Shown here in pieces: positions 6,671 through 51,581 of a stretch of DNA of 64,000 nucleotides. Source of the DNA: Bdellovibrionales bacterium (GTDB lineage Bacteria > Bdellovibrionota > Bdellovibrionia > Bdellovibrionales > JAUICD01). Positions within the stretch are counted from its first letter, which is position 1; every line of letters begins with the position of its first letter. Position numbers and translations under genes: made by a program. The notes beneath the pieces were generated by a model. The model was not told the DNA's origin, did not search any database, and was given only the letters and a program-made list of their open reading frames with translations. The stretch is from assembly GCA_965262715.1 (NCBI GenBank), contig OZ253553.1, positions 1,664,001 through 1,728,000 on the forward strand, written 5' to 3'.

Positions 6671-7990
6671 TTACTTTAGTCTTACTAATTCTTTGTATGA
6701 AAAGCATCCGCTTGCCTCACCTATATCACAAGCCTTCTTAAAAAGCAGTTTAGCTTGATCAATACTTCCCTGTCTTTTTTCAAGGTCTGCAAGGATCATA
6801 CAATCTTTAATTTCGCCTTTGTTACAGGTTTCTTTGTAGGTTTGCCTAGATTGGTTGATATTTCCATATCTCTCTTCAAGCCATACAAGGAAATAGCATC
6901 CTCCATATAGCTGAGAGCTTTTATAACAAAGCCTTTTGTAAATTTGTCTAGCTTGGTTGATATTTCTTTGTTTTTCTTCAATGTCTGCAAGAATCCTACA
7001 ACCATGTCCACTTGTACCTTCACCTTTAAGTTCACTTTTTTTACTTTGATCTTCATTTTGATCACAAACCTTCTTATAGAGCTTTTTGGCTTGATTGATA
7101 TTTCCTTGCGCCCTTTCAAGATTCCCAAGTTTAATGCATTCTCCTATTTCATTTCCATCACAACCTTTTTTGTAAAATTGTTTAGCTTTATTGATATTTC
7201 CTTGCGCTTCTTCAAGGTCTCCAAGAATCACGCATCCACGCATTTCACCTTTATCACAAGCTTTCTTATAGAGTAGCTTAGCTTGATTAGTATTTCCTTG
7301 TTTGTCTTCTATTTCTCCAAGCAAGAAACAACCTACTAATTCACCCTTATCACAATTTATTTTGTAGAGCTGCCTGGCTTTATTGATATTTCCTTCCCTT
7401 TCTTCAAGGCTTGCAAGCACAAAGCAACTTTTTACTTCGCCTTCTTCACACTTCTTTTTATAAAATTGTTTGACCTGATGAATGTTTTTTTGTTTTCTTT
7501 CAAAAATTATAAGTTCAAAACAACTCCATGCTAGCATTTCATTTTGATCACAGTTTTTTTTGTAAGCTTGCCTAGCTTGATCAATATTCCCTTGCTCCTC
7601 TTCAAAAGATCCTAAAGCATGACAAGCCTCCATTCTATGTGCTCTATCTACACCACTTGCAGTATCACAAATTCTTTTGTAAACTTGTCTAACTTGATCA
7701 ATGTTTCCTTGTCTTCTTTCAAGATATCCAAGAGCAAGACATCCTTTCACCTCACCTGCATCACAAGCCTTTCTGTAAGCTTGCCTAGCCTGATCTATAT
7801 TTCCCTGGGATTCTTCATTAAATCCAAATTGCATACAAGCTTGCACCTTGTTTTGATCACAAAGGTTTTTATAGGTTTCGTTTTGATCTTGATCTATCAG
7901 ACTCAATTTGTCTTTTGTCTTTACATGAGAACATCCTTGTATAAAAAATATGACCAATAGCATAACAAAACTCTTTCTAAAGACCATCAC
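6671..7990 (-). CDS. Sel1-like/HcpA-type Cys-rich repeat lipoprotein
   Basis: Lipobox IQGC; ~11 repeats of GNIxQAxxxYKKxCDxGExxGCxxLG. Confidence 0.9.
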   Translation of the reverse strand: MMVFRKSFVMLLVIFFIQGCSHVKTKDKLSLIDQDQNETYKNLCDQNKVQACMQFGFNEESQGNIDQARQAYRKACDAGEVKGCLALGYLERRQGNIDQVRQVYKRICDTASGVDRAHRMEACHALGSFEEEQGNIDQARQAYKKNCDQNEMLAWSCFELIIFERKQKNIHQVKQFYKKKCEEGEVKSCFVLASLEEREGNINKARQLYKINCDKGELVGCFLLGEIEDKQGNTNQAKLLYKKACDKGEMRGCVILGDLEEAQGNINKAKQFYKKGCDGNEIGECIKLGNLERAQGNINQAKKLYKKVCDQNEDQSKKSELKGEGTSGHGCRILADIEEKQRNINQARQIYKRLCYKSSQLYGGCYFLVWLEERYGNINQSRQTYKETCNKGEIKDCMILADLEKRQGSIDQAKLLFKKACDIGEASGCFSYKELVRLK

Positions 7991-9562: not shown

Positions 9563-10321
9563 ATGATGACTATTTTGAGTAAATCAGATGTGAAAAAAAT
9601 GGCAAAGTCTGGTCACTTAGCAGCATCTACTTTAGAGCATGTAGCCCCATTTATCCAGCCAGGTATCACTACATTAGAGATTGATAAAATTTGTCATGAT
9701 TTTATGGTGAGTCATAATGCTATCCCTGCCACTTTGAATTACAAAGGATATCCTAAATCTTGCTGCACATCTGTCAACTCTGTAATTTGTCATGGAGTTC
9801 CTGACAGTACAGTTTTAAAGGAAGGTGATATTGTAAATGTAGATGTCACTACCATTTTAGAAGGATTTCATGGAGACACATCTAGAACATTTTATGTAGG
9901 TGAAGTCTCTCTGGAGGCAAAAAGACTTACTGAAGTCGCAGAAAGTGCTATGCATAAAGGGATAGAGGCTATTTCTCCAAATGGCACTGTTGGAGATATT
10001 GGATTTGCTATAAATAAATATGTGACAAGGAAAGGTTTCTTTCCTGTAAAAATGCTAGGAGGTCATGGCATTGGACGGCAATTTCATGAAGAACCTTTTG
10101 TACCTTCTTTTGGTAAAAAAGGACAAGGAGCTTCTTTGGCTCCATACCACTGTATCACAGTAGAGCCTATGGTGAATTTAACAGATGCTGCTATTAAACA
10201 ATATCCTATACCAGGTTCACAGCATATGTGGTTTGAGGCAGAAGATAAGAGTCTATCTGCCCAATTTGAACACACAATACTTGTCACAGAAAATGACTAT
10301 GAGATTCTAACAGTTTGTTAA
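9563..10321 (+). CDS. map: Methionine aminopeptidase type I
   Basis: SVNSVICHGVP, DVT...GFHGDTSRT, GHGIG..FHEEP, EPM, SAQFEHT. Confidence 0.95.
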   Translation: MMTILSKSDVKKMAKSGHLAASTLEHVAPFIQPGITTLEIDKICHDFMVSHNAIPATLNYKGYPKSCCTSVNSVICHGVPDSTVLKEGDIVNVDVTTILEGFHGDTSRTFYVGEVSLEAKRLTEVAESAMHKGIEAISPNGTVGDIGFAINKYVTRKGFFPVKMLGGHGIGRQFHEEPFVPSFGKKGQGASLAPYHCITVEPMVNLTDAAIKQYPIPGSQHMWFEAEDKSLSAQFEHTILVTENDYEILTVC

Positions 10322-10521
10322 TTGATCATAGTCGTTCTTGATTCATAACCAGTTAAGCTTTCTTTATTCCGTGATCCGGCAATCACGGACAATCTGGAAA
10401 ACGGATCCATTCCATTAGTATCAAGTAACAGATGGCGGAAGCTGATTGCCAGGTTACCTGTCTCCCGGAATTCCGGAAGAAATTAGGTAATATTTGTATA
10501 ACTATTAGATCAAATAATTCG

Positions 10522-10577
10522 AAAAAACAAAAGCCAAGCTAGGGGAACTTGGCTTTATAAGGGATTAAGGGGGATAC
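10522..10577 (-). ncRNA. Candidate sigma54-dependent small RNA, copy 1
   Basis: Starts 12 nt after the -12 C of CGGCATAGGCTTTGCA; GUAUCCCCCUUAAUCCCUU then AAAGCCAAG/CUUGGCUUU hairpin and U-tract. Confidence 0.6.
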
Positions 10578-10587
10578 TTTATTAAAA

Positions 10588-10603
10588 TGCAAAGCCTATG
10601 CCG
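10588..10603 (-). promoter_or_regulatory. sigma54 (-24/-12) promoter motif; also at 11008-11023, 11429-11444, 11848-11863
   Basis: Minus strand CGGCATAGGCTTTGCA = GG-N10-GC. Confidence 0.65.
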
Positions 10604-10941
10604 TTCTTCAATATTTTTTTTCAGCATTTAAACCGTCTTTTAAGCCATTGTAGAGTAAGCTAAGCGTCAAATACATATTCTTTGTGACAAAAAAGGTCAT
10701 ATTTAAGAGGTTAAAAAACTTCTAGATTGTAAAGTGTCTTAACTTTGAGATAAACCACCTAAGTGATTTTAGTATAGATCAGGATAAGCTGAATACTTTT
10801 TAAGAAAGAAAGGCTTTCTATGAACTACTTAAAGTATTATGAATCTGATTTCTTTGTATTAAATAAGAATTTGTTACTCAAATATAAATATATAAAAGAT
10901 ATCTTAGTTTAACAGAGATATATGTTGTATCAAATAATTCG

Positions 10942-10997
10942 AAAAAACAAAAGCCAAGCTAGGGGAACTTGGCTTTATAAGGGATTAAGGGGGATAC
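10942..10997 (-). ncRNA. Candidate sigma54-dependent small RNA, copy 2
   Basis: Identical to copy 1. Confidence 0.6.
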
Positions 10998-11362
10998 TTT
11001 ATTAAAATGCAAAGCCTATGCCGTTCTTCAATATTTTTTTTCAGCATTTAAACCGTCTCTTAAGCCATTACTAGTGTAAGCTAAGCGTCAAATACATATT
11101 CTTTGTGACAAAAAAGGTCATATTTAAGAGGTTAAAAAACTTCTAGATTATAAAGCGTCTTAACTTTGAGATAAACCACCTAAGTGATTTTAGTATAGAT
11201 CATGATAAGCCGAATACTTTTTAAGAAAGAAAGGCTTTCTATGAACTACTTAAAGTATTATGAATCTGATTTCTTTGTATTAAATAAGAATTTGTTACTC
11301 AAATATAAATATATAAAGAGCATCTTAGTTTAACAGAGATATATGTTGTATCAAATAATTCG

Positions 11363-11418
11363 AAAAAACAAAAGCCAAGCTAGGGGAACTTGGCTTTATA
11401 AGGGATTAAGGGGGATAC
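11363..11418 (-). ncRNA. Candidate sigma54-dependent small RNA, copy 3
   Basis: Identical to copy 1. Confidence 0.6.
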
Positions 11419-11781
11419 TTTATTAAAGTGCAAAGCCTATGCCGTTCTTCAATATTTTTTTTCAGCATTTAAACCATCTTTTAAGCCATTATAGAGTAAG
11501 CTAAGCGTCAAATACATATTCTTTGTGACAAAAAAGGTCATATTTAAGAGGTTAAAAAACTTCTAGATTATAAAGCATCTTAATTTTGAGATAAACCACC
11601 TAAGTGATTTTAGTACAGATCATGATAAGCTGAATACTTTTTAAAAGAGGAAGGCTTTCTATGAACTACTTAAAGTATTATGAATCTGATTTCTTTGTAT
11701 TAAATAAGAATTTGTTACTCAAATATAAATATATAAAGATATCTTAGTTTAACAGAGATATATTTTGTATCAAATAATTCG

Positions 11782-11837
11782 AAAAAACAAAAGCCAAGCT
11801 AGGGGAACTTGGCTTTATAAGGGATTAAGGGGGATAC
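11782..11837 (-). ncRNA. Candidate sigma54-dependent small RNA, copy 4
   Basis: Identical to copy 1. Confidence 0.6.
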
Positions 11838-12079
11838 TTTATTAAAGTGCAAAGCCTATGCCGTTCTTCAATATTTTTTTTCAGCATTTAAACCGTCTTT
11901 TAAGCCATTATAGAGTAAGCTCAGCGTCAAACACATATTCTTTGTGACAAAAAAGGTCATATTTAAGAGGTTAAAAAACTTCTAGATCATAAAGTGTCTT
12001 AGTTTTGAGACAAATCATCTAAGTGATTTGAGTATAGACCATAGTCAGCCGAATACTTTTTAAGAAAGAAAGGCTTTCT

Positions 12080-14107
12080 ATGAACTATATCTACCTTACA
12101 CAATCTTTACTTTATCGTTTGATTTGGCTCTCAATTTTATTTTTGGTCCTAGTTAGATGTAGTGGTAGCGGTAGTAGCACCAACCCTAGTCAATCGATAT
12201 CAGTTACAGATATTGAGAATGATACTGTACCTAAGCTTTCAAAAGAATGGGAATGGAGCTGTGATAGTGATACACTTTGTCGTTTCCGTTTTGCTATTAA
12301 TCAATCACAAACCCATATTTTTTCTGAAAATGATGACTATAGTAGCGAAACTACAAAAATAGAAGAGCTTGGAGATAAGGATGAAGGGATGTATTATCTT
12401 CATGTACAAGCTAAAGATCTATCTGGTAACGAATCAAATGTAAAAACAGCATTATTTATTTTGGAGCTTCCTAGAAGTTCTGCATCTGAAATATCATTAG
12501 TTTTAGTTGATCCAATACCTCAAGCAAACTCTCTTTATCGAAGTCATACACCAACTATCGAAGTTCGTAGAGATGGAGGAGAAAGCTTAGGGCTTAATCA
12601 ACAATTAAAGTTCTATAATGCAGAGAATTGTAATTCTTTGAATGCAATTTCTGATCTTATGGCTCCAAAAACAAATATATTATCTGCTCCATTAACTACC
12701 AATTATTTACACCATGGTATTCATAATATTTATGTTGGAATAAGAACAAAGGTTCAAAATGGGCAAGATAGTTTCGAATGTGGTACTAAACCACTATCAT
12801 ATGTGGTTTATGACCCTATTGTCACAGGCCATAAGTTTTCTTGTCGCTTAAACGCTACAGGTTCAGTTAAATGTTGGGGAAAAAATGATGAAGGTCAGTT
12901 AGGACAAGGTAATAGCAATGAATCAGGAAAAGAGGCTATCGGTGATGGCACAAATGAGATGGGAAACAATTTGCCGGCAGTGAACTTAGGCAATAATCGT
13001 ACTGCCAGATTTATTACGGCAGGAATTCAACATGTATGTGCCATCTTAGATAACAATAGTGTGAAGTGTTGGGGAAAAAATGATCAAGGCCAATTAGGTC
13101 AGGGTAATAGCAATGAATCAGGAAAAGAGGTTATTGGTGATGATATAAACGAGATGGGAGATAACTTACCAGAAGTTGATTTAGGAGAAAACCGCACAGT
13201 TAAAGTTATTGCCGCAGGAGGTGATTATACATGCGCTATTTTAGATAATAATGACCTTAAATGTTGGGGGAAGAATAATGAATACCAGCTAGGAATAGCT
13301 CTTAATACAAAAACATACGGTGATGATGCTGATGAAATGGGAGATAATTTGCCAAAAGTTGATTTAGGAGATCATTACACAGCTAAGGCTGTTTCAGCAG
13401 GAAACGACCGTGCATGTGCTATTCTAAATAACGATAGTGTAAAATGTTGGGGAAGAAGAGGGTTTTTAGATACTGAAAGTGATGAAACCCCATTATTCAT
13501 CGAAATACAAACTTCTGATCCCAATTTGGGTAGACCTTATAATGTTAACTTAGGGGTAGGTCGCACAGCTAAGATTGTTACAGCAGGAGGTTATCATACA
13601 TGTACTATCTTAGATAATGATCAAGTGAAGTGTTGGGGCTTAAATGATGAAGGTCAGCTAGGATTAGGTGATACAGAAAATCGTGGCGATGACCTCAATG
13701 AGATGGGAGATAATTTGCCAGAGATTAATTTAGGAGTAGATCGCATAGCTAAAGCTATTACAGCAGGAGATAAACATACATGCGCTATTCTTGCTTTGGG
13801 TAATGACCACTTTGTAAAGTGCTGGGGATATAATGGTAAAGGGCAACTAGGATTAGGTGATGTACATTCTCGTAGTGATGAAGAAGATGAAAACGTGGGT
13901 GACTTGCAAGAGGTTGATCTTGGATCAACTCTTATTGTTAAAGCTATCGCAGCCGGAGATGAACATACATGCGCTCTCTTAGGTGATGCTGATGATGTTA
14001 AATGCTGGGGATATAATGATAAGGGTCAACTTGGTCAAGAAGATAATGATTCACGTGGTAATGAGCCTAATGAGATGGGAGATAACTTATCTGAAATAAA
14101 ATTATAA
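12080..14107 (+). CDS. RCC1/BLIP-II repeat beta-propeller lipoprotein
   Basis: Lipobox-like LVRC-SGSG; seven repeats of AGxxHTCAILDNxxVKCWGxNxxGQLG. Confidence 0.9.
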   Translation: MNYIYLTQSLLYRLIWLSILFLVLVRCSGSGSSTNPSQSISVTDIENDTVPKLSKEWEWSCDSDTLCRFRFAINQSQTHIFSENDDYSSETTKIEELGDKDEGMYYLHVQAKDLSGNESNVKTALFILELPRSSASEISLVLVDPIPQANSLYRSHTPTIEVRRDGGESLGLNQQLKFYNAENCNSLNAISDLMAPKTNILSAPLTTNYLHHGIHNIYVGIRTKVQNGQDSFECGTKPLSYVVYDPIVTGHKFSCRLNATGSVKCWGKNDEGQLGQGNSNESGKEAIGDGTNEMGNNLPAVNLGNNRTARFITAGIQHVCAILDNNSVKCWGKNDQGQLGQGNSNESGKEVIGDDINEMGDNLPEVDLGENRTVKVIAAGGDYTCAILDNNDLKCWGKNNEYQLGIALNTKTYGDDADEMGDNLPKVDLGDHYTAKAVSAGNDRACAILNNDSVKCWGRRGFLDTESDETPLFIEIQTSDPNLGRPYNVNLGVGRTAKIVTAGGYHTCTILDNDQVKCWGLNDEGQLGLGDTENRGDDLNEMGDNLPEINLGVDRIAKAITAGDKHTCAILALGNDHFVKCWGYNGKGQLGLGDVHSRSDEEDENVGDLQEVDLGSTLIVKAIAAGDEHTCALLGDADDVKCWGYNDKGQLGQEDNDSRGNEPNEMGDNLSEIKL

Positions 14108-14181
14108 AATAGGCTGGGTTATACATACAAATATTCATCGAGTATCAATAGAGATGCCTGACTCTTTTTAATTAATATGTG

Positions 14182-14243
14182 AAAAAAAGAAAAGCCAAGT
14201 TATACAACTTGGCTTTTTGTTAGAAATTAATTAGGGGGTATAC
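14182..14243 (-). ncRNA. Candidate sigma54-dependent small RNA, diverged copy 5
   Basis: GUAUACCCCCUAAU...AAAGCCAAGUU-GUAU-AACUUGGCUUU then U-tract; same spacing from a GG-N10-GC motif. Confidence 0.6.
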
Positions 14244-14253
14244 TTTATTAAAT

Positions 14254-14269
14254 AGCAAATCTTGTGCCG
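14254..14269 (-). promoter_or_regulatory. sigma54 promoter motif
   Basis: Minus strand CGGCACAAGATTTGCT, near-consensus YTGGCAC-N5-TTGCW; palindrome TAGTGATAA-N5-TTATCACTA upstream (~14346-14368). Confidence 0.7.
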
Positions 14270-14394
14270 TTTCAAGACACTTTTAAAAGGGTTTAAACCA
14301 GCTTTTAATCATCAGAACTGTCTACTAACTGTCAAATATATCACCTAGTGATAAAAAGATTATCACTAATCACTTATGATTTTTTCTAAAATTA

Positions 14395-14491
14395 TTAGAA
14401 CTCATCTCAAAATTACTTCTAATGTCCACGTTTTCAAAACAACCTCTTAATTTAAGTACTGTATAAAAGAACTGTTTCACTCAAAATGAAC
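14395..14491 (+). repeat. 97-bp inverted repeat, left arm (pairs with 15784-15880)
   Basis: About 93/97 identical to the reverse complement of 15784-15880. Confidence 0.9.
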
Positions 14492-14606
14492 TAACCTCTC
14501 GAGGCGAACCTCTCAAGGCGAACCTCTGGCCATTTTCTGGTGATGATCCCGACAGTTTGCACTGTCGGTAAAATGATCATCACCTAGAAAACTTGTTCAT
14601 TTTGAG
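14480..14606 (+). repeat. Structured intergenic repeat, family A
   Basis: CTCAAAATGAAC...GTTCATTTTGAG arms, 14-bp internal tandem CCTCTC(G/A)AGGCGAA, nested stems. Confidence 0.8.
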
Positions 14607-14751
14607 TAGGAAAGATCCTCTTTATTTTTTTAAATCATGTTAAGGAAAGCTTTTTATTTTTATCATAAGGCATTGGCTGGGAGGACTATTTCAGAAGCCT
14701 GCTGCTGCATGCTTTTAATTTCAGAAACTTATTACAAAAGGTAAACAGTCA

Positions 14752-15291
14752 TTAATTCACTGGGTTGATATTTTGTAGATAAAACTGAAACTCTTTGATG
14801 CTTTCTCTAATGTCATCTAAGGCTTTATGTGTATTTTGCTTTTTAAATTCTTGGCCAAATTTATGTTTTAAGATGAGCTTCCAAGAAGTGATATCCAACA
14901 TGCGATAATTAAGAAGCTCATTGAACCTAGAAAGATGTTTCTTAATAAATAATCGATCTTGATGAATGGAGTTGCCAGCAATAATAACTTCCTTTTTTTT
15001 AAAGTACTTGTGGGCAAGAGCCATCAGATCATCCTCAACCTGAGATGGAGGTTTACCCATTGGCACTTTTTTAACTAAACCTGTCTCTGTGTGTGTCTTT
15101 GTGTTCCATTTGTCCATATTATCCAAAAAAGATTGAGGTTGCTTAACAACAGCATGGTATTTATCAAACTCCTTAAAGTCTAGATCTGTGATAATGGCAG
15201 CTACTTCAATAATGACTTCTTTTTCTGAATCTAAACCTGTCATTTCTAAGTCAATCCAAAAAATCTTATCCATATCCATAATAAACTCCAA
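14752..15291 (-). CDS. orn: Oligoribonuclease
   Basis: WIDLEMTGLD, IIEVAAIITD, GNSIHQDRLF, YRMLDITS, HKALDDIRESI. Confidence 0.95.
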   Translation of the reverse strand: MEFIMDMDKIFWIDLEMTGLDSEKEVIIEVAAIITDLDFKEFDKYHAVVKQPQSFLDNMDKWNTKTHTETGLVKKVPMGKPPSQVEDDLMALAHKYFKKKEVIIAGNSIHQDRLFIKKHLSRFNELLNYRMLDITSWKLILKHKFGQEFKKQNTHKALDDIRESIKEFQFYLQNINPVN

Positions 15292-45644: not shown

Positions 45645-46550
45645 ATGAGTTTATTTAAAAATATAGTTGTTATATTCTCATTATTAGTAATGATAAACTC
45701 AAGTAGTGTAGCAATTGGAGCAGATGAAAATGCTACAGATAGAGCTAGAGATGCGGCTAATAAGTTCGGATCTTGGATAGCTACTATCTGGAACGACGAG
45801 GTAGCGCCTGTGATAGTTACTATCTGGAATGACAAGGTATGGCCTGTAGTAACAGACTGGACGTTAGGTGAGTTGTATCTCGATACTGCAACTGGGTTTG
45901 ATGAATGGACACCTTTGATAGATGCTGCTTGGAATGGCCAGCTAGATATTGTAAAGGAGTTGATAGCAGCTGGCGTAGATGTAGATGCTAGGGATCGTAA
46001 TGGAAGGACAGCATTAATGTATGCTGTTTGGAATAACCAGTTAGAAGTTGTAAGAGAGTTGATAGTAGCTGGCGCAGATGCAGGTGCTAGAGATGATAGA
46101 GAAGTGACAGTGTTGATGTATGCTGCCCAGAATATTGGAAGGGCGGCATTAATGCCTATTTGGGATGATTTGTTAGAGATTGTAAAAGAGTTAATAGCAG
46201 CTGGCGCAGAGGTAGATGATAGAGATTATAATGGAAGGACAGCATTGATATGTGCTACTGAAGGAGATATCGAAAAGGAAGAAGAATTGTATGGTAATGG
46301 CCGCCGGCTAGAGCTTATAAGGGTATTGATAGCATCTGGCGCAGATGTAAATGCTAAGACTCGTAATGGAATGACAGCATTGATGAATGTTGTTCAAAAA
46401 GGAGGCGGTCTAGAGCTTGTAAGGGTATTGATAGCAGCTGGCGCAGATGTACGCGCTAGAAATGGTGATGGATGGACAATATTGGGGCTTAGTAGATGGG
46501 AAGGAACAATGAGAGTTGTAAGGGAATTGAGAAAAGCTGGAGCAATGTAA
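45645..46550 (+). CDS. Secreted ankyrin-repeat protein
   Basis: Signal peptide; repeated GRTALMYA...IVKELIAAGADVNA. Confidence 0.92.
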   Translation: MSLFKNIVVIFSLLVMINSSSVAIGADENATDRARDAANKFGSWIATIWNDEVAPVIVTIWNDKVWPVVTDWTLGELYLDTATGFDEWTPLIDAAWNGQLDIVKELIAAGVDVDARDRNGRTALMYAVWNNQLEVVRELIVAGADAGARDDREVTVLMYAAQNIGRAALMPIWDDLLEIVKELIAAGAEVDDRDYNGRTALICATEGDIEKEEELYGNGRRLELIRVLIASGADVNAKTRNGMTALMNVVQKGGGLELVRVLIAAGADVRARNGDGWTILGLSRWEGTMRVVRELRKAGAM

Positions 46551-51229: not shown

Positions 51230-51581
51230 GTTTCAGTTTCTAGGTAATGTGTTATACTGATGAGAGTAGATACGCATGGTACAGCTTCACACACTATACA
51301 CAGTTTCAGTCTCTAGATAATGTGTTATACTAATGAGAGGTCAGCGCGGAAGTGAAAAGTTCTCTTGTGAGGTGTTTCAGACTCTAGGTAATGTGTTATG
51401 CTAATGAGAGCTTGCAGCTAACTACCAATCAGCAAGGGCTATGGGTTTCAGACTCTAGGTAATGTGTTATGCTAATGAGAGCTTGCAGCTAACTACCAAT
51501 CAGCAAGGGCTATGGGTTTCAGACTCTAGGTAATGTGTTATACTAATGAGAGTTTCTTCATAGATAGCCTCATACATCTTT

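Follow-up and report, generated by a model that had tools for sequence, protein, structure and literature searches.

In a 64,000-nucleotide stretch of the genome of a Bdellovibrionales bacterium (GenBank assembly GCA_965262715.1, contig OZ253553.1, positions 1,664,001 to 1,728,000 of the forward strand; hereafter the window), we found five copies of a predicted small RNA gene, four of them in a tandem array at 10509..12087 and a fifth, diverged one at 14182-14268. The five copies are likely AT-drifted members of a family that extends across the order Bdellovibrionales. We suggest a model, to which we give a probability a little above even, in which this family is an order-wide, sigma54-driven RNA with C-tracts that pair with G-rich ribosome-binding sites without Hfq, lowering the translation of regulators. 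In this model, transcription from the sigma54 promoter would yield an RNA of about 55-65 nt, and an enhancer-binding protein would switch the RNA gene on through an upstream dyad. The exposed C-tracts, one at the 5' end and one in the terminator loop, would then pair with G-rich ribosome-binding sites, again without Hfq, and the RNA, presumably acting in trans, would lower the translation of a few regulator mRNAs, the candidates being an order-specific stand-alone LuxR-type gene and a DksA-like gene. The four tandem copies, apparently intact, would raise RNA output. The model is built from what the DNA shows: promoters that fit the consensus at a fixed spacing, C-tracts left unpaired in two places, a stem with covariation, a U-tract, and an element that is present throughout the order and has neighbours that change. 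The RNA family appears to be undescribed, and the mode of action proposed for it is of a known kind.

All five copies are on the minus strand and have the same layout, in which a sigma54-type -24/-12 promoter core (GG-N10-GC) is followed by eleven spacer bases, a G at +1, five C, a stem of 11-12 pairs and a U-tract. The promoter cores of copies 1 to 5 are at 10589..10602, 11009..11022, 11430..11443, 11849..11862 and 14255..14268, and the 5'-end G is 12 nt past the conserved C in each of them (10577, 10997, 11418, 11837 and 14243), exactly as the preliminary description of this DNA had proposed. Copy 1 (10522..10577, 56 nt) has the 5' C5, a second CCC, a stem of 11 pairs at 10530-10556 that closes a C4 loop, and the U-tract; copies 2 (10942..10997), 3 (11363..11418) and 4 (11782..11837) are identical to it. 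Copy 5 (14182..14243, 62 nt) is diverged and keeps the promoter, the spacing, the 5' C5 and the stem, also as described earlier, while the C-rich loop is lost. The predicted RNA is a single stem of 56-62 nt with folding z-scores of -4.6 and -5.1, and the pattern of promoter plus C5 occurs five times in the window and not once in 100 shuffles. This genome (2.94 Mb, 33.6% G+C, 92.7% complete) matches the strict sigma54 consensus 43 times, mostly between genes and in many cases 57-130 nt ahead of one; only at the five copies is such a match followed by a C-run and a hairpin. A whole-genome search gave no sixth copy. All five copies are probably functional. Elsewhere in the genome, many sigma54-type promoters precede predicted lipoproteins or a repeated gene family that, by inspection, resembles nucleases or transposases.

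In line with a predicted dependence on sigma54, RpoN and five full enhancer-binding proteins are encoded in the genome, and a dyad is found within 80-150 bp upstream of the predicted RNA. This candidate activator dyad, GTGAC-N7-GTCAT, is at 10684..10700, about -107 to -124 relative to copy 1, and recurs at 11105-11121, 11525-11541 and 11944-11960. It is the same in all four tandem units; the second dyad that had been assigned to every unit has TGTCTT only in units 1 and 4. Both dyads had been quoted from the plus strand. Upstream of copy 5, a diverged palindrome is found at the matching distance (14347..14367), and similar GAC..GTC dyads precede the orthologs in G001, which is from the same genus, and in G003 and G004. 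A dyad-enrichment search in 70 upstream regions returned A/T-tract pairs only, and there is no activator gene among the neighbours of the array. Because GAC..GTC dyads recur in some lineages only, we assign no activator.

The family was at first taken to be local to an RCC1-repeat gene in the window. Instead, it is order-wide and normally single-copy. A DNA similarity search with the array unit against 40 relatives gave chance matches only, and the flanks are therefore not conserved. The pattern GGYRY-N5-TTGCW-N10-15-CCCCC is found in 116 of 301 genomes of the order versus 29 of 301 for the reversed control. Matches to promoter plus C-run amount to about one per genome and run on into a G+C-rich stem, a C-rich loop and a U-tract. 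A scan of all species, which covered 52 of 64 parts, returned at least 119 loci, 60 of them with the family stem; 59 of these 60 carry Bdellovibrionota-type names and one is labelled Bacillota. The named records with the element are from Bdellovibrio and other Bdellovibrionales. A model of promoter plus RNA that was built without this genome (R2) places the five copies on top in the window (26-30 bits, E 3e-6 to 4e-5; next match 11 bits) and finds the element, mostly once, in 55 of 61 Bdellovibrionales genomes at E<=0.05, with all 13 families represented. In a sample of the phylum, R2 matches 21 of 23 genomes within the order, and its four weak matches in the 127 genomes outside are not convincing; these four were rejected because three are promoters before the starts of open reading frames (ORFs) and none has a hairpin. 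A broader model (R3) recovered G003, G025 and G053; even with R3, no members were found in G021, G035 and G048, and G061 has weak matches only. Two further matches were discarded: G002:C58 (L213) matches by chance within a gene, and a second sigma54 site after the G045 copy, which might be read as a tandem copy, is followed by a protein gene.

The order of promoter, C-run and hairpin is thus conserved in relatives throughout the Bdellovibrionales, with compensatory changes in the stem, as the preliminary description would lead one to expect. In 58 distinct members, 93.6% of the stem cells are paired and stem covariation is 0.285, a value reached in none of 500 shuffles. Changes on both sides are seen in three of the 11 pairs among these members and in all 11 once divergent members are added, the alignment in the latter case being biased toward the model to which it was fitted. 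The first C is at +3 to +6 in 62 of 62 members, and a C-run of at least four is present in the 5' part in 38 of 40 members and in the terminator loop, where no second C-tract had been foreseen, likewise in 38 of 40; copies 1-4 of the window have a C4 terminator loop, and copy 5 lacks this C-run. The copy in G001 links these AT-drifted copies to the rest of the family, as it is single, itself AT-drifted and intermediate in stem, loop, 5' part and upstream dyad. In genus g3 (L214, L441; G004, G003), the 5' C-run is replaced by an anti-Shine-Dalgarno-like stretch, CUCUCCUU, and the stem is longer; the luxR leaders of G003 and G004 also deviate from the order consensus. The family had been supposed to be unannotated. 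In keeping with this, Rfam 15 families have no match in the window, with only weak chance matches for 10300-14750 and 16 related loci, and no description of it was found in the freely accessible literature searched.

An amidase_3 gene is found 29-116 nt downstream of the element on the same strand in 16 of 25 genomes, with the RNase PH gene (rph) behind it in the one locus checked, and the site before amidase_3 looks like the ancestral place. Together with the report of CT-rich motifs by which some sigma54 promoters silence the ribosome-binding site that follows (bioRxiv 10.1101/086108), this arrangement could indicate a cis-acting element, i.e. a sigma54 leader or attenuator of the amidase-rph operon or a terminator with a CT-rich insulator. 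We consider this improbable. In G050, G042 and G054, the element has the opposite orientation to the amidase, and its neighbours are unrelated genes in Bdellovibrio, G011, G001 (groES-like), G002 and this genome. Moreover, copies 1-4 have no same-strand gene downstream and face the end of a convergent gene, yet they are invariant. Rather, the family is a predicted free-standing non-coding gene, normally in single copy.

The copy in B. bacteriovorus HD100 also argues against a cis element. In Table S2 of PMC3627812, the 50 upstream bases in the promoter row of bd2697 begin with the 3' stem arm and the U-tract of the family, and the mapped start of bd2697 is about 30 nt past this U-tract. It follows from this row that the HD100 copy ends near 2,620,002 on the minus strand, upstream of bd2697, and that the downstream gene has a start of its own; the RNA, between bd2697 and bd2698, would start near 2,620,060. 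The small RNAs of PMC3627812 (eight, APsRNA1-7 and merRNA, 98-655 nt) and the hit-locus RNA of PMC3818213 (261 nt) are likewise intergenic RNAs of the Bdellovibrionales; however, the HD100 copy is at other coordinates and is none of them. Because PMC3627812 took attack-phase-enriched intergenic regions only, its silence on the family says nothing about expression.

Hfq was found in none of 41 genomes of the order, and pairing of the RNA with mRNAs would likely proceed without it. In this genome, 64 of 2241 leaders pair with the 5' part of the RNA at -16 kcal/mol or below versus 25 of 2241 coding controls, an excess that arises in part because Shine-Dalgarno sites are G-rich anyway. The sole G7 run among the 2241 leaders precedes the stand-alone LuxR-type gene, for which the predicted duplex with the RNA is about -21 kcal/mol. 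When three genomes were screened with home-made start calls, this gene came out on top of 491 ortholog sets; the screen took in 1.6 of 1.82 Mb for G011 and 0.8 of 2.17 Mb for G007. Of 41 relatives, 40 have the gene, and it shares the range of the RNA, being found in 22 of 23 genomes in the order and in none of the 127 outside it in the phylum sample. Its start region is nearly invariant, with an exact 20-mer pattern in 21 of the 23 order genomes, this genome not being among them, and the RNA of this genome ranks its own luxR leader first of 34. The second candidate is the DksA-like gene, with a run of G5 or longer in 17 of 30 ortholog leaders versus 1.3-4% of genes.

Two features of these candidates deserve mention in their own right. 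The LuxR start region (L234-L263; G000:C1:895474, i.e. this genome, and orthologs) is nearly invariant including synonymous positions, and the LuxR-type promoter has conserved GTCTAG/GTCCAG and GTCAGACTT boxes, which together suggest a separate regulatory element. The DksA-like genes (L264-L293; G000:C1:636449 and orthologs), of which there are one to three per genome, have ribosome-binding sites of poly(G) and, upstream, a GTTCCA..TGGAAC/TGGCAC dyad that recurs.

Several observations weigh against our model. In a comparison of 34 genomes, the RNA pairs with the luxR leader of its own genome no better than with those of other genomes (p=0.64), and for many cognate pairs the energy is weak (-2 to -8 kcal/mol). 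In view of this negative test, the LuxR-type and DksA-like genes are candidates only. The LuxR gene was first chosen in this genome, so that its top rank is partly circular, and the near-invariant start region extends into codons beyond the C-tract pairing. Sharing of G-run leaders between this genome and G011 is modest at G4 (8 of 416 pairs, odds ratio 3.8, p=0.006; the 416 of 706 ortholog pairs counted are those with consistent starts) and not significant at G5, and any C-rich oligomer prefers G-rich leaders. No one upstream dyad is common to the whole order. An RNA-only model (R1) gives the window copies 8-12 bits (E about 0.5-4), compared with 19.5 bits for the G001 ortholog, because their stem has drifted to A-U pairs and their 5' part is longer; thus, the family assignment leans on promoter, architecture and the G001 bridge. 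Finally, a plain terminator would not need a stem so conserved in sequence, and a protein partner may be the reason.

Such a partner is at the core of the main rival to base pairing, in which the RNA is sigma54-driven and serves mainly as a protein ligand or decoy, e.g. for a poly(C)- or KH-type protein with the stem in its binding site. We regard a protein-binding role as unlikely, if worth serious attention. It would account for the conserved stem sequence, with three near-invariant pairs at the foot, for C-run lengths that vary freely and for the lack of covariation between the RNA and its best mRNA candidate; in addition, this genome encodes a KhpA-like protein, and Hfq, CsrA and ProQ were not found in it at 92.7% completeness. 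It fits less well with the stems in this genome, G001, G003, G004 and genus g22, which have changed on both sides with the C-tracts still unpaired, and with the CAUCC or GCAUCC next to the C-run in several lineages, which could pair with GG-AUG starts. GGA repeats of the CsrA-sponge type are absent; indeed, the RNA has no GGA, which together with the failure to find CsrA in this 92.7% complete genome sets it apart from CsrA/RsmA sponges.

Base pairing through C-tracts, the mode of action that we prefer, has precedents. The C-rich base-pairing RNAs (LhrC, sX13, RepG) and the present family have in common position-conserved, unpaired C-rich motifs. LhrC1-5 of Listeria monocytogenes are five copies, each with its own activator-dependent promoter, and their C-rich motifs, which are single-stranded and also present in the terminator loop, bind the Shine-Dalgarno region with no need for Hfq (PMC4132741). 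By contrast, they depend on LisRK rather than sigma54, have three UCCC sites and an extra stem-loop (PMC4132741), and are multi-copy as a rule, whereas the Bdellovibrionales family is usually single-copy and has no match in Rfam. In sX13 of Xanthomonas and HPnc5490/RepG of H. pylori, C4/C5 loops act on G-rich motifs near translation starts independently of Hfq (PMC3771888). However, sX13 is 115 nt with three stem-loops and has no Rfam sequence match here, and sigma54 has no occurrence in the text of the sX13 paper (PMC3771888). By analogy with sX13 and LhrC, the unpaired C-tracts may pair with G-rich leaders without Hfq.

With respect to the promoter, a parallel comes from another predatory lineage that lacks Hfq, the myxobacteria, in which Pxr is a sigma54-driven small RNA that controls a life-cycle switch and is single-copy in most species, with tandem paralogs that have their own promoters in Cystobacter (PMC5568312). 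Pxr differs in that it is 108 nt, has three stem-loops, is processed and is fixed beside nla19 (PMC5568312); there is no Rfam match here. Vibrio Qrr1-5, to which the array had been likened, are also several sigma54-driven sibling RNAs (PMC3771888), and the likeness holds for promoter type and copy number. It does not hold for Hfq, as Qrr RNAs are Hfq-dependent, longer and dispersed, while Hfq is missing from all 41 genomes of the order and no Qrr family match was found in Rfam. The Qrr seed is not known to be poly(C). If the LuxR-type target holds, a further parallel to Qrr would be a master transcription regulator as target.

A more far-reaching version of our model, in which an ancestral, order-defining circuit has the two-C-tract RNA repress both the LuxR-type regulator and DksA and thereby gate the switch between attack and growth, appears doubtful. 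Its LuxR-type regulator may correspond in HD100 to Bd1826, the one gene labelled LuxR there, which is of equal length and whose level in growth phase is about ten times higher (PMC3627812, Table S1). The non-coding RNAs that we found reported for the Bdellovibrionales were described as lineage-specific and without known targets. The family could represent a missing post-transcriptional layer of the attack-to-growth switch, and it bears on how C-rich riboregulators work and multiply without Hfq. With the RNA in all 13 sampled families, and at a known position in the tractable strain HD100, these ideas are directly testable. Should the order-wide circuit be true, look-alikes in two other groups would point to a wider, unrecognised class of short sigma54 C-run RNAs. 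Both groups were selected by the same pattern as the family, and their likeness is no proof of homology. In the first, 17 gammaproteobacterial loci with mostly Steroidobacteraceae or unclassified proteobacteria names have a near-invariant sigma54 promoter, a C6 run, a GC stem and a U-tract (L063, L078, L080, L086, L089, L107, L110, L114, L121, L122, L124, L127, L137, L144, L163, L165 and L167). This element is about 47 nt, lacks a C-rich loop, scores 20-30 bits on the RNA-only model (nine tested) and has no Rfam match for the two tested; it is possibly a second undescribed family. In the second, Brevinematales loci L070:1201-1283 and L120:1201-1283 combine a sigma54 promoter with a 5' C5, a stem closed by a C-rich loop and a U-tract, in a layout much like that of the window copies, and score 44-45 bits on R3; L097, L160 and L154 are similar but weaker.

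The tandem array is the lesser part of these findings, and its value is to have exposed the family. Tandem Repeats Finder (TRF) gives it a period of 421 bp, 3.8 units and 96% matches, in agreement with the unit of about 420 bp, repeated about 3.75 times, from which the analysis started. Along with one RNA gene and the region upstream of it, each unit carries a duplicate of the first codons of the RCC1-repeat gene and of the ribosome-binding region before them. Among the four units, variable columns number 0 of 63 in the RNA, 0 of 14 in the promoter core and 27 of 221 upstream (Fisher p about 0.001, for regions picked after inspection and copies that are not independent). The core earlier said to be identical in all units is so for RNA and promoter; one base of the spacer varies. 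In two other sequencing runs, variants of the copy 3 promoter spare GG and GC and drift toward TGGCA..TTGCT.

Read depth was compared on collapsed short-read contigs from four runs with contigs that match the window letter for letter, X1, X2 and X3 being one sample, possibly the source of the assembly, and X4 a second study. In all four runs, contigs of the array core are 2-4x deeper than the flanks (X1, 16.8 versus 7.9 and 6.3; X2, 39.9 versus 14.5 and 15.1; X3, 39.5 versus 19.8 and 9.9; X4, 8.6 versus 2-4). No contig spans the whole array in the short-read runs examined. Read depth thus supports several copies, and the number four is not independently fixed by it.

Does the array reflect selection for dosage, as its first reading as a dosage amplification implied? 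It need not. The genome is prone to tandem duplication, with 41 arrays of a period of at least 150 bp that make up 4.6% of its intergenic DNA, so that duplication needs no special cause. A tRNA-like tandem points the same way; in it, four tRNA-like copies with an 8-base anticodon loop precede tRNA-Trp with a period of 89 (G000:C1:2198524-2198955). Because G001 has one convincing copy, one copy may also be enough, and we put the chance that the four-unit array is neutral at somewhat less than even. Against neutrality, RNA and promoter are invariant next to a variable upstream region, and the array is older than most arrays (96% matches versus 98-100% in 26 of 46 TRF rows). Although heavily drifted, copy 5 retains its promoter, seed and stem. 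Furthermore, genus g22 independently has about four paralogs, among them two in tandem at a distance of 448 bp, each with its own promoter, and a longer variant (L421, L430-L433, L418 and L419; G028, G036), and G002 and G016 have two copies each. The best explanation, held with the same slight confidence as the model as a whole, is that copy 5 stems from one old duplication and copies 1-4 from a later, recent tandem duplication.

On the plus strand, full units contain an ORF of 28-30 codons that is convergent with the RNA (30 codons at 10820..10912 and 11241-11333; 28 codons at 11661-11747 in unit 3, where it is frameshifted). Tandem repeats are typical of ldr/rdl and ibs/sib, and the array might accordingly be a type I toxin-antitoxin repeat in which the RNA silences a 30-codon peptide. 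This is highly improbable. The ORF uses the duplicated RCC1 start, lacks a clear transmembrane stretch and has no overlap with the RNA; the 120-bp segment to which it belongs is found nowhere else in the genome; and copies 1 and 5 have no ORF partner, nor is there one beside the orthologs inspected. Because each unit contains the start of the RCC1 gene, these ORFs are most likely a by-product of duplication.

The RCC1-repeat gene itself (12080..14107, plus strand, 675 aa) is divergent from copy 4 and convergent with copy 5, and is a neighbour rather than a part of the family. It had been described as encoding a lipoprotein. The RCC1 repeats are confirmed, but the putative lipobox is non-canonical with Arg before Cys; the protein is one of nine related proteins in the genome, and the eight paralogs mostly start with a signal peptide plus Cys. 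On the other side of the array, a gene for a peptidase M24 (methionine aminopeptidase-like; 9563..10321, plus strand) is convergent with copy 1. Upstream of copy 5 is a gene for an oligoribonuclease-like exonuclease (orn; 14752..15291, minus strand), and between the two is a dispersed repeat (14380-14660) with hundreds of partial matches in the genome; a BLAST search with 14271-14760 gave 383 rows. Three other repeats are present in the window, i.e. 96-bp units in a TPR/Sel1 gene at 7085-7409, 99-bp units in a stretch that is ankyrin-like by inspection at 45922-46126, and a tandem repeat with a 71-bp unit (99%) at 51374-51552.

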